Source: Malacoraja senta
Lineage: Eukaryota
Assembly (NCBI GenBank): GCA_038087875.1
Contig: CM075988.1
Coordinates: 1,364,001-1,428,000, forward strand
Reading direction: 5' to 3'
Length of the DNA stretch: 64,000 bases
A program made the position numbers and the translations under genes. Position 1 is the first letter of the stretch. Every line of letters starts with the position of its first letter. Shown here one piece after another: positions 16,321-34,407 of the stretch. The notes under the pieces were generated by a model, which was given only the letters and a program-made list of their open reading frames with translations, had not been told where the DNA came from and searched no databases.

Positions 16321-17095
16321 GTGGAGGACCACATGGCAGGGCACAACAAGGAGAAGCATTATGAGTGCGACGTGTGTGGCAAGGCCTGGCAGCACCTGAG
16401 CCTGCTGGATACCCACCGGCGGGTGCACACGGGAGAACGCCCCTTCAACTGCTCGGAGTGCGGCAAGAACTTCACCCGCTACGACAGCCTGCGCACAACC
16501 GCGTGCACTCCGGCAATTGTCCCTGCGGCTGCTCCGACTGTGGAAAGAGCTTCAAGATGCCACACGAGCTAAAGATGCACCGGCGGGTGCACATGGGCGA
16601 GAAGCCCTTTGACTTCTCCACCTATGGCAAGAGCTTTGCCCGGTTGGCCAGGCTGCGGCTGCACCGGCGGGTGCACAGCAGTGACCAGCCCTTCACCTGC
16701 TCCGACTGTGCCAAAGGCTTCAAGTCGTCGCCAGACCTGATGCACAGGTGCCTGCACACCGTGGAGCGGCCCTACACCTGCAGCGACTGCGACAAGGTCT
16801 TCATCCGCTCCAAAATCCTGCTGGAGCATCAGCGCACCCACACTGGCGAGCGCCCCTACACCTGCGCCCAGTGCGGCAAGGGCTACACCTGCTCCAAGCT
16901 TCTGTCCCACCAGCAGGTGCACACCGGCGACTGTCCCTTCCCCAGGCCCTTCGGCTGCTCCTATTGTGGCAAGAGCTTCATGACAGCGTATGACCTGAAG
17001 GTCCACCGGCGAGTGCACACGGGCGAGAAGCCCTTTGGCCGCTCCACCTGCAGCAAGAGCTTTGCCCGGTTGTCGGGGCTGCGGGTGCACCGGCG
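16321..17095 (+). pseudogene. C2H2 zinc-finger array pseudogene (~9 fingers), antisense within APLP2 intron 1
   Basis: CxxC..HxxxH fingers with TGE(R/K)P linkers in two frames (frameshift near 16490). Several fingers have lost a Cys or spacing; the array is cut mid-finger at 17095. Confidence 0.88.
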
Positions 17096-17759
17096 TGTGG
17101 AAGAAAAATTAATGTCCTTCCTTGCTTAATTTTGACTGGAATCGAGCAAGGTAACAAAAGGGGTGTTTTGGATGTGACAATTGGCAGCTCTCGCTTGACC
17201 AGGTGCAGAAGAGGTTCATGGGAATCAGCAAAGTAAGATTAGATGCATAACCTCTTGTCTGGGAATGTGTTGAAGGGTGGATGGTAAATGTAAAGATGTA
17301 ATGGTAGAGAAGATAACGAAACTTGTTTTCCCTTCGTGAGGAGTTACAATAGATCACCCGTGCCCCCTACCGCTAGTAGCGTAGATACATTGCAATAAAT
17401 GGGAGGCTTATGATTGGCTTGGAGAGGGGATGGAGGTGTGGGCTGCCTGAAAGGTGAGATAGAATAATGTCAAGATGCCCTTGTATTGTGTTTGACTTGT
17501 ATTAACCATCTGTTGTTGAATAAGATTAACATAAGCGAAAAGTATATTATGACTAATGAAATAATTGGTACCTGTGTAGTTGATAGAATATTTTTGTAAA
17601 GTAGTATCTAATTCTGCTCTGAACTCAGAGAACTGGTGGGCAGTTTACTGCCGCCATCTCTCCATGATATCATGCAATAAAGTCTCTTGAAGCAAACCTG
17701 CGAAGTCTGTTATTTTTAGTGTTCCTTTAATTTCCCTCTAAATGAATTTCTTCCCCAGA
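17096..17759 (+). mobile_element. Putative 5' LTR of an ERV/Gypsy element
   Basis: Starts TGTGGAAGAA and ends TTCTTCCCCA(GA), an imperfect inverted terminus; AATAAA at 17676; directly followed by a PBS-like 18-mer. Confidence 0.7.
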
Positions 17760-23069: not shown

Positions 23070-24223
23070 AATAAGTGAGTTCATTATTCTGAAAAACGCA
23101 AGGAATCATGGGATTTGTCAAAGGTTGTAAGGTATAAATAAGAATCGAGGGGGAGGGAGAGACTGAGCAGGGGAGAGAGACGGGAGACCGGGCGGGGAGG
23201 GAGGGAGGGCGGGGGGTGAGGAGGGAGAGAGGAGGGAGGGAGGGCGGAGGAGCGGAGGGAGGGTTGGGGGGGATGGTCCCCCCCACCCACCCCCCTCCCC
23301 GCTTGAGATGTCCGGACCGATGGGACACCGGCCCCCAGGCCCAGCGTGGAGAAGCGCCAACCCCAACCCCAACACCAGCGGCCCCAGACCCACAGCCAGC
23401 CCAACCCCAACACAGCGACCCCAACCCCAACTCCAGCCCAACCCCACTCCAAATCTAGAGGAACCCGCTCCCCGATGGACGACTATGTGCCAGTTCTCCC
23501 ACGGCCTCAGCCGCTACCCAAATACAAGCCTACCTTGCACACCCCCAGCTTCTGCCCCTACGGTACCCGCTGCCACTTCATCCACAACCCCGAGGAGGAG
23601 AGGGCCTGCGCCAGAGCGCCAGCCTGGGCTCAGCCTCCTCTGGCCTGGCGCTAGACTGAGTCGCCTTGCTGGCCCGGACTCTAGGCTTGGGATTGGGCAA
23701 GGGAGGGGAGGAGGTTGCTGCTGCCGCCAGCACCACCATCACCAACAGTACCCGCAGCTCCAGCGGATGCCTGGCCTTCCATGGCCGGCAGGAGCCCATC
23801 CGCAGACTCTCTCTCCAACCAGGACGACTCCAGCAGCAGCGGCTCCGAGTCGCCCCTTCTTCGAGAAGGGCCGGCGGCTGTCCATCTTCAGCAGGATCTC
23901 GGTGTCGGACTGAGGGGAGGTGGGTGGAGGTGTAGGGCTGCCGGCCACACGGCGGGACAGGCAGAGCCGAGCTGAAGCCAGCGGCTGCAAGTCCAGGGTC
24001 GCCCCACCAGCCCAGGGCCACCCCGGACACCACCGGACAGGGACGGGACACCACGGAGGGGACGGGAATGGCCCAACAGCAACCCGCTGCGACGGAGAGC
24101 CGAACCCGACTATGGACGAAATGCAAGCCTGCACACAATGCAGCACCACCGTTGCCAAGACTGTTTTATAGCTAGTGACCTATGACCTGGGCATGCACAG
24201 TCGGAATACCGAACTCGCTTATT
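23070..24223. mobile_element. Unclassified TIR element with gene-fragment cargo
   Basis: Ends AATAAGTGAGTTCATTATTCTGA.. and ..TCGGAATACCGAACTCGCTTATT; both ~65-bp ends match those of 33685-34407 in reverse orientation. Confidence 0.8.
23488..23913 (+). pseudogene. Degenerate ZFP36/TIS11-family (ZFP36L-like) fragment: tandem CCCH remnant and C-terminal CNOT1-binding motif
   Basis: Across frameshifts: [14 protein letters not shown]..[35 protein letters not shown] and GRRLSIFSRISVSD-stop (cf. RHPKYKTELC..FCPYGPRCHFIHNAEE and RRLPIFSRLSISD). Confidence 0.88.
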
Positions 24224-30449: not shown

Positions 30450-30883
30450 TTTGCAGTTTTTTTTATCTTGCTCTATTTTATAATTTAGAACGCACTCAAT
30501 GTGTTCAAAAATAATGCAGATGCTGTAAACCTGATATAAATGCAGAAAATGCTGGAAACAAATAGGTTGGACAGAACTGTAAAACTGATCTCTTATCTGA
30601 CTACTCAGAAATCTTCATGGTTTGGTATCTGGTTCACCAAATTATACTGGCCATGATTCCTTCCCACTCACTGGAGACCCACTTCCTCCGTTCCCTTTAA
30701 ATCCAGCTGCTACACTAAATAATTTATAATACTGTAACATCTTGAAAGAAAGTTAGTTAAAAGCATTTTAAGATATGCATACAAATCCAATAGACCAGTA
30801 AACCCATTAATTGCAATAGCAAAGTCCAAAGCGAGAGGGATCAGAGGAGTTACATTGTATCTGCAGAAAGAGAAACAGAGTTA

Positions 30884-31520
30884 AAGGCCTGTCCCACGGG
30901 CAGGCGGTTACTGGCAGTGTAGCAGGAAGTTGGGACCACGTGTGGACCGCCAGAGACCGCGCATGGCCCGCGGGGTCGGTCCCACGCAGACCGCCGGGAC
31001 CGCATGTAGTTGGTCCCGACACCGTGCGGTGCTCAGAAACGCTGACACTGTTCAAAAATCTCGGCCTACCGCCCAGCCGCCGCGAGCATTGCCAGTGCGC
31101 CGCGAGCACCGCCTGTACGCCGCGAGCACCGCCTGTACGCCGCGAGCACCGCCTGTACGCCGCGAGCACCGCCTGTACGCCGCGAGCATTGCCAGTGCGC
31201 CGCCTGTGCGCCGCGAGCACCGCCTGTACGCCGCGAGCACCGCCTGTACGCCGCGAGCACCGCCTGTGCGCCGCGAGCACCGCCTGTGCGCCGCGAGCCG
31301 TCTCGACGTCATCGCTTAGCGCGATGACGTCATCACCCGACGCCGCGCGACGTCCATTCCAGTCGGCCCGTGGGACAGGCAGTGCGGTGACCACCCGGCA
31401 TACTCGCGGCTCGCATGCTCGTGGGACGCATCCGAGCGGCGCTCCCGCAGCATACGTGCCGCGCTCCAGCGGTAGCCGCGCGGTCCCCGCCAGTAACCGC
31501 CTGCCCGTGGGACAGGGCCA
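30884..31520. mobile_element. PIF/Harbinger-type MITE with internal 20-bp minisatellite
   Basis: ~30-bp TIR (..CCTGTCCCACGGGCAGGCGGTTACTGGC) and TTA on both sides; (CGCCGCGAGCACCGCCTGTA)n at ~31078-31298. Confidence 0.85.
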
Positions 31521-31715
31521 TTAATGGTTCGCCCAAAGACTCAGTGTAAGAAATGGGGAACCAGGGAGAAATTAAGTTGGTTTTAACATGCAGAGGTTTG
31601 GGGAGTGGTAGAGGACAAAGGAAATATCTTTGATTGGGTGGGGACATGGATAAGCGGTTGATGAAGCCATCTGTTTGACAGTCTAATGAGGCTAAAGAGG
31701 GAGCATAAATGAGCA

Positions 31716-32746: not shown

Positions 32747-33684
32747 ACATAAATAGGAATATGTAACAGGTGTCACAGCTATAGGGAATACCCAACAGAA
32801 TGGAAATGCAAGAAACGCCTTGCACTATTTAGGGAGACAGACAAATTGACCTGATATTACAGATGGATAACCTACAGCAGAACTGCTCTTTTAACAAGTG
32901 AGACTTTCATGGACTGATTGCATGTTGCTTACAGAATCAATATTTTCTCCTCCCTGCCCAGCATTCTCAGCTCCAATGGGCTTACTTGTCTGACACCAGA
33001 GTCCTGAAACAGTCTATTCTACGTTCTGATTACCATCTTTGAAATTGTACAATATCTGTTCCAACACAGAATCCCTGGTCTCTGACAACTCAAGAGAAGG
33101 GATATTTAGGACAGTATTGAGAACCTCCTGTCCTATTATCAGGAACACACAGGAGCGTTGCACCAGCCAAACAGTCAACCCACACTCCATCAAGCCCCAC
33201 TTGTGGCAGAAACCTGTTAATCCCACATTGGTCTCATCAGCCATCTCACAACAAATAGAACAGAAGTGTAATCAAGTCATTCTCAATCCAGTATAACTGC
33301 CTCCGAAAATAATAATTATGTAGCATCAGGCAGACCAGAGTTTGAGTACCAAACAGTTCTGGTCACTACACTGTGGCAAAGATGTGATTGCACTAGAGAG
33401 GAAATTTATGAGGACGCTGTCATCATCCATGAAAGTCTTACTCTCTCCCTTGCTGAAAGAACTGGTCAATTCTGCTGTCGATTTTTCTGACAACTTTAAG
33501 GTGAGATTGATGAGGCTGGTATTGTTTTCTTTGGAAAAGAGGCAGAGGAAAGATCCAATTAAGAAATAGAAACAAGGAACTGCAGATTACAAAAGAAGAC
33601 AAAGTGCTGGAGTTAGTCAGCAGGTCAGACAGCATCTCTGGAGAACATGGAGAGGTGACGTTTCAGATAGAGACCTTCACACCT

Positions 33685-34407
33685 AATAAGCGAGTTCGGT
33701 ATTCTGACTGCACATGCCCAGGTCATAGGTCACAAGCGAAAAACACTCTCGGCAGCCGTGCTGCGGCATGGAAACAGAACTGCGCCTCATCTGCAGCCAG
33801 GATCAATCCCGGGTCTCCGGCGCCACAATCGCTGCCGAACCGCCACTAGACCATCCCCTCCCGAGTGCCCCCCCCCCCCATCGTGTGGCGGCGGCCAGCG
33901 ACGTCGGGAGTCAGACGGGAACGACGCCCACAGCCAGTGCTGAGAAGCCGTGCTAAATCCAGCTCAACTCTGCTTGTCTTGCCGGGTTAACTTACCAGCC
34001 CTGCCTGGACTTACGGGAACGGCGGCCCAGGCTTAGAGCCAGCACAGAGAAGCAGCGCTAACTCCACGGCTCCAGGCTGGTGTCCCATCAAAGCTGCAAG
34101 TTAACCCGGCGAGACAGGCAGAGTTGAGCTGGTTTTAGCGCTGCTTCTCTGCACTGGCTGTGGGCGCCGCACCCATCTGACTCCCGACGTCTCTGGCCGC
34201 CTCCGGACCTGGGGGGGGGCACTTGGGAGAGGACGGGGATGGTCCAGTGGAGGTTCGGCAGCGATTGCGGCGCCGGAGACCCGGGATCGATCCTGGCTGC
34301 AGATGAGGCGCAGGTCTGGGGCACGGCTGCCGAGAGTTTTTATCGCTTGTGACCTTTGACAAAGCCCATGATTCCATGCGTTTTTCAGAATACCAAACTC
34401 GCTTATT
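33685..34407. mobile_element. Unclassified TIR element with foldback interior
   Basis: AATAAGCGAGTTCGGTATTCTGA..TCAGAATACCAAACTCGCTTATT; interior arms ~33727-34000 and ~34092-34355 are inverted copies. Confidence 0.85.

Follow-up and report, generated by a model that had tools for sequence, protein, structure and literature searches.

Here we describe a non-autonomous DNA transposon of the ISL2EU (PHIS/Harbinger-like) type, one copy of which occupies positions 23073-24220 of the window, by which we mean the whole 64-kb stretch of skate DNA analysed (G000:C12:1364001-1428000, within a 1.94-Gb assembly). This decayed copy very probably holds half of a host ZFP36 coding exon, likely acquired in one template-switch capture and likely spread in trans to hundreds of sites. 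The features of a Pack-TIR are present: host sequence lies between both terminal inverted repeat (TIR) ends, the parent gene is not flanked by the transposon, and copies have their own target-site duplications (TSDs). We regard the family as a Pack-TIR whose carrier has not been reported before and whose scale is unusual for an animal. Literature searches returned no prior report of this Pack-ISL2EU family, which may be catalogued in Repbase or Dfam.

Anatomy of the window copy

The element is 1148 bp long (23073..24220, + strand), with end B on the left and end A on the right, and is a decayed member of a subfamily marked by an 11-bp and an 18-bp deletion. On its left stand the target base A and the first AT of the TSD (23070..23072, +), as assigned from the sequence itself, the family tally and empty sites, and on its right the second AT and the target base T (24221..24223, +). 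End B (23073..23148, +) consists of a 22-nt TIR and a B-specific subterminal region and matches the family majority at 88% over 78 nt. Further inward, the remnant of a 5' GC-rich arm (23286..23478, +), partly lost in this copy, provides an ATG directly before the cargo. The captured fragment of ZFP36 exon 2, from the third paralogue and likely tristetraprolin (TTP), occupies 23479..23935 (+), as delimited by alignment to the parent. It is followed by a 3' GC-rich arm (23936..24137, +) and by end A (24138..24220, - strand), which comprises the TIR and an A-specific subterminal region and matches 33684-33769 at 86% over 87 nt.

That last match belongs to a second element of the same ISL2EU family, a cargo-free foldback MITE of 717 bp (33688..34404, +; end A left, end B right; flanks A-AT and AT-T). 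An earlier note on this DNA, made from the sequence alone, had observed that the two ends of 23070-24223 recur at 33685-34407 in opposite orientation, and the alignments agree (86% over 87 nt and 82% over 78 nt); likewise, ends A and B have in common only the outer repeat, which is the 22-nt TIR. The foldback seen in the second element was also confirmed, since it is self-complementary along its whole length (75.6% over 767 aligned nt) and its predicted DNA fold of -329.7 kcal/mol (z -30) was equalled by none of 20 shuffles. The same note had called the two interiors unrelated, which does not hold: the 3' arm of the window copy, including end A, aligns to the foldback majority at 65% over 327 columns, and the pack and foldback majorities match at 76% over 264 nt and 69% over 327 nt beyond the ends. 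As the arms of the pack element match the foldback family, the cargo sits midway in a related MITE. Minimal MITEs of 170 bp and 295 bp with the same ends (L114 and L170) indicate that the family needs little sequence.

Several other features were seen in the window. The segment 24381-24440 is a neighbouring unit of the repeat that received the pack element and looks like a diverged empty site. A frameshifted C2H2 zinc-finger array lies at 16365-17126, a further TIR element with TTAA at each end and a 20-bp tandem repeat inside lies at 30881-31524, and remnants of CR1-type LINEs are common throughout.

The captured exon and its parent gene

Across the family the cargo is about 0.55 kb of ZFP36 exon 2. 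It begins in the middle of finger 1, ends about 27 nt beyond the stop, has 72% GC and lacks poly(A). In the window copy it contains the end of finger 1, a broken finger 2, the C-terminus with its stop codon at 23911-23913, and about 22 nt of 3' UTR. The frameshifted ZFP36-family segment reported in the earlier note is thus present, with a CCCH remnant and the terminal RRLSIFSRISVSD-stop. This cargo differs from the parent by 8.9% over 429 columns and from the majority of the copies by 7.0%.

Host genes of the ZFP36L1/L2 type (L061 and L062, with Tis11B_N) were rejected as the parent, as their similarity is confined to the finger and the final ~70 nt. A search with a Rhinoraja ZFP36-like protein, which the cargo matches at 85%, located the parent on contig C3041: a structurally intact third ZFP36 paralogue (L159) with a TATA box, a 13-codon exon 1, a 1.2-kb intron and exon 2. 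The majority sequence of 56 copies differs from it at 13 of 541 columns (2.4%). The parent carries two compensating 1-bp breaks, and a near-identical unbroken protein (P0003) exists; the breaks are probably assembly errors. No TIR was found around the parent in 20 kb of C3041, which cover ~17.6 kb upstream and, up to the contig end, ~130 nt downstream of the stop.

Exons of Med29 lie on C3041 about 70 kb upstream of the parent and on the same strand, and PAF1 is on a different small contig. Human ZFP36 is linked with MED29 in a chromatin loop, as noted in PMC3999108, and adjacency to MED29 as in human makes the parent likely to be the TTP orthologue. A 25-row tree groups two cargo copies, the parent and two skate-like proteins with support of 100/99; having left out mammalian TTP, it separates the parent from the host L1/L2-type genes only. 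A literature search for TTP/ZFP36L1 evolution in the elephant shark gave no match.

The cargo has states in common with Rhinoraja that differ from the present parent, namely LAEL and a shorter Gly run, which suggests capture early in skate history. In a 28-row tree of the copies no inner branch is well supported, so that capture and speciation cannot be ordered from it.

Amplification and decay of the copies

A 35-nt motif across the 3' junction occurs 158 times in the assembly at ≤3 mismatches, against 0 for the control, and some of these matches are segmental duplicates and not separate transpositions. The motif detects 43 of 71 cargo loci retrieved, from which we cautiously estimate a copy number of about 260, bearing in mind that the groups overlap and are biased to well-kept copies; candidates at first look numbered 357-743. 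The earlier note had named two findings that would speak against its reading, a ZFP36 piece confined to this site with its own TSD or poly(A), and ends unpaired elsewhere in the genome. Instead, cargo copies stand at separate sites with their own TSDs, and the loci retrieved include 69 distinct elements with both ends. Seven near-equal cargo matches 15-55 kb apart at G000:C13:44199-200678 probably form a tandem segmental array and do not represent separate jumps. Many variants of the two ends and of the cargo are also covered by contigs from three coded organisms (A, B and D), and the source sample may be one of these.

The copies differ from their majority by 6.8% (4.5-11.2%), and the closest pair among the 56 is 3.3% apart, near-identical copies having been removed beforehand. 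Frameshifts are present in 49 of the 56, together with 33 stop-gains. Half of the copies (28/56) carry the 11-bp frameshift deletion, by which finger 2 loses its first Cys, and 16 of these 28 carry the 18-bp deletion as well, a nested pattern that points to successive non-coding masters. The protein was therefore not needed for amplification, since a master with a destroyed finger 2 gave rise to half of the copies. A near-length protein search found no annotated pack protein product at 1e-12 among 85 candidates.

It is conceivable that the same element amplified as we propose and that selection has since preserved some of the copies or of their RNAs, either as a one-finger TTP fragment with the C-terminal motif or as sources of antisense or piRNA acting on the parent. 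The majority frame is open from the element-supplied ATG through the natural stop, and two of the 56 copies (L160 and L165) have an unbroken frame between finger 1 and the stop; L160 has the ATG as well. Furthermore, pN/pS of the copies is 0.60 (CI 0.54-0.65), slightly under a neutral expectation of 0.77 that was drawn from non-cargo DNA with a crude model. Copies found by protein search are biased to low pN, however, and in the least biased subset, copies found by DNA search without frequent-allele sites, the value is 0.68 (0.59-0.77). With this bias, the crude neutral model, the frameshifts in 49 copies and the descent of half of the copies from a master that already lacked an intact finger 2, maintenance by selection appears quite improbable. 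Cargo evolution has been mostly neutral, perhaps with weak constraint; the copies are in decay, and a working protein is unlikely to come from them. Most likely the amplification was selfish and involved no function of the protein, and the element family is probably now inactive.

Capture junctions

Identical 5' and 3' cargo junctions recur across the copies examined. Cargo-free relatives (the L133 insert, L022 and L007) run on from the 5' junction point, GGGCCG|GRGACC, where the element overlaps the parent by 4 bp (GCCG); at the 3' junction the overlap is 2 bp (AG), which is within chance. A single capture event is likely. No second host cargo was found in 13 other interiors, inspected by eye and by BLAST against each other and against the gathered proteins; these consist of rearranged GC-rich family modules, SINE/LINE-like pieces and flanking DNA. 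The earlier note's picture was borne out in that the family is non-autonomous, has fixed asymmetric ends, and has captured a host gene fragment and moved it. Its proposal of exchangeable cargo is not supported by these interiors, as one host-gene cargo with one pair of junctions is all that was found.

Because the cargo lies within one exon, an RNA template is possible: a retrocopy or other cDNA from the ZFP36 mRNA might have landed in the MITE and been amplified later. The absence of the intron from the cargo and the frequency of CR1-type LINE remnants in the window fit such an origin. A LINE retrocopy, however, is expected to begin at the mRNA 3' end, whereas the cargo ends ~27 nt after the stop with neither poly(A) nor a TSD of its own, and microhomology is present at the 5' junction. 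We consider the mRNA origin very improbable and keep to a likely template switch, on what was probably genomic DNA.

Target site, carrier and autonomous partner

Candidates for the ends numbered 1092 for end B and 1347 for end A at first look, of which 40 each were scored. That the ends are paired elsewhere in the genome was established by the 69 elements, whose flanks are AT..AT in 62, GT..GT in one (L053) and mismatched on one side in six; beyond the duplication, an outer A is present in 59 of the 69 and an outer T in 59. With the two flanks blasted separately, empty paralogous sites for five of five elements show 4 bases against 6 in the filled site, and three further empty sites are mostly AATT. 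Insertion thus goes into A|AT|T and duplicates the 2-bp AT. At AT sites this is formally indistinguishable from blunt insertion into WA^TW, L053 being the one element that discriminates. No clean TSD had been recognized in the earlier note; both window elements in fact read A-AT-[AAG...CTT]-AT-T, with AT duplicated, which places their true limits at 23073-24220 and 33688-34404.

A search with HTH_Tnp_4 gave 23 matches, 20 of which were extended to 10 kb. Thirteen of these transposase loci belong to one family and seven to another without these ends. Both ends were recovered in five of the 13 (L089, L090, L145, L148 and L150; 1.5-5.4 kb), and all five hold transposase remnants. The exact end type of the pack element, including end B of the window copy, is found in L089, L090 and L148, and variant ends in L145 and L150.

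A single open transposase ORF was identified (L083/L133), with the Pfam domains THAP, HTH_Tnp_4 and DDE_Tnp_4 on the L083 ORF; it encodes 527 aa with the DDE residues present (L083:664-2247 = G000:C4:41095150-41096733). By tblastn, L089, L090 and L148 match it at 63-80%. A convergent YqaJ remnant on L133 (PF09588, 25.1 bits, cut-off 22) is found also in L148, with an 84% DNA match; L148 measures 5.4 kb, including insertions. In the autonomous copies, end B lies upstream of the YqaJ ORF and end A upstream of the THAP-DDE ORF. None of the 20 transposase loci fetched is a fully intact autonomous copy. The L133 copy with the open ORF has no A end of its own, the A end at L133:2477 having been rejected because it belongs to a nested non-autonomous insert.

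The features given for ISL2EU by Han et al. 2015 (PMC4482050) are an A|AT|T target, a THAP-HTH-DDE ORF and a YqaJ ORF; the TIRs there "usually" start with GG, a wording that makes this start a tendency and not a defining rule. The TIRs here start with AAG. From the AT TSD and the THAP-HTH-DDE plus YqaJ partner, the superfamily is ISL2EU. The earlier suggestion of a Crypton-like tyrosine-recombinase element or a TA-targeting DDE element, in keeping with the lack of a long TSD beyond WATAAG..CTTATW, has virtually no probability and is ruled out by DDE_Tnp_4/THAP/YqaJ coding sequence bounded by identical ends, by empty sites that read AATT and not TA, and by a 22-nt TIR, Cryptons being described as without TIRs in PMC3212892.

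The open ORF differs from a full-length Leucoraja model at 15 residues (97% match). Its pN/pS of 0.66 is not distinct from the 12 broken copies (0.61-1.69), and domestication is possible. Of 1046 homologues, the 120 best are headed by the 97% Leucoraja model and partial Rhinoraja models. The named sequences that follow are mostly from marine invertebrates (oyster, echinoderms, amphioxus, corals), with some teleosts, and reach ~57%; no named shark or other ray is among these 120. According to PMC9179366, ISL2EU was not detected in elephant shark, gar and coelacanth, and among the vertebrates tested there it was in teleosts only. Together, this absence and the spread of homologues make horizontal entry of ISL2EU into skates plausible.

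Other related loci were observed as well. L134 and L135 (G000:C1:124.08 Mb and C341) represent a second ISL2EU-like family without these ends, with an HTH-DDE ORF and a convergent YqaJ-like/PHD ORF at ~34-39% to the first family. L142-L145, L147, L149 and L150 form a sister subfamily with the same transposase and variant subterminal ends. A Rhinoraja protein named SETDB1-like (P0233) is 64% identical to 54% of the transposase, a possible fusion or mis-joined model.

Discussion

The proposed history would begin with ISL2EU copies bearing the same A and B ends, which exist and encode THAP-HTH-DDE and YqaJ, and with their many internally deleted or rearranged derivatives, which range from 170 bp to ~2 kb and include the 33.7-kb foldback. 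During gap repair or fork switching in one derivative, synthesis may have switched to ZFP36 exon 2 at the 4-bp GCCG microhomology and come back to the element at the 2-bp AG ~27 nt past the stop. Amplification into A|AT|T sites, by what would be cut-and-paste transposition with the family's transposase likely acting in trans, seems to have passed through successive masters with first the 11-bp and then the 18-bp deletion. The family would now be dead, its cargo decaying close to neutrally.

Among animal Pack-TIRs surveyed by Tan et al. 2021 (PMC8277862), 4 of 370 were multicopy, frog examples had 3-5 copies, and 87% rode on hAT or Tc1/mariner elements; multicopy examples given there include Pack-hAT-N8_XT with the CAPSL 5' UTR and Drosophila Ssk-FB4. 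The present family resembles those multicopy cases in holding GC-rich host sequence within TIR ends, distant from the parent and with short microhomology, and in the later amplification of copies by transposition with separate TSDs. It differs from the Pack-TIRs of that survey in its at least 158 copies, its ISL2EU carrier, its coding-exon cargo, and its age and decay. Because the screen in PMC8277862 kept young cases with unique parents, old high-copy families may be undercounted. With the ISL2EU (IS4EU) group of PHIS it shares A|AT|T, the AT TSD, the convergent YqaJ ORF, a short TIR and an autonomous size of ~5 kb; unlike that group as presented in PMC4482050, its TIR starts with AA, and gene capture is not among the features drawn from that account. 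Like plant Pack-MULEs and Pack-CACTA, as characterized in PMC8277862, these are non-autonomous TIR elements that carry and multiply gene fragments; they are of another superfamily and kingdom, and the plant elements have many cargos, in contrast to the one host cargo here.

In scale, the family exceeds the multicopy frog cases of PMC8277862 by 30-50 times. It also extends ISL2EU to cartilaginous fish, against the absence published in PMC9179366 for the non-teleost vertebrates tested there. The capture is a traceable vertebrate case of the Pack type, with the partner, cargo-free precursors, both junctions, the parent and a succession of subfamilies in one genome.

For the skate itself, the cargo copies keep ancestral ZFP36 sequence, and they will complicate mapping and annotation of the ZFP36 gene. 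They also make it testable whether small RNAs from mass-copied fragments of a regulatory gene act back on the parent. We think it unlikely, though worth stating, that a horizontally acquired ISL2EU made several hundred dispersed near-copies of a TTP exon of which some act on the parent pathway, through small RNA or antisense or as a one-finger protein, a fragment that keeps the C-terminal motif we take to be deadenylase-recruiting. If copies did act on the parent pathway, a vertebrate gene family would have been built by a DNA transposon.
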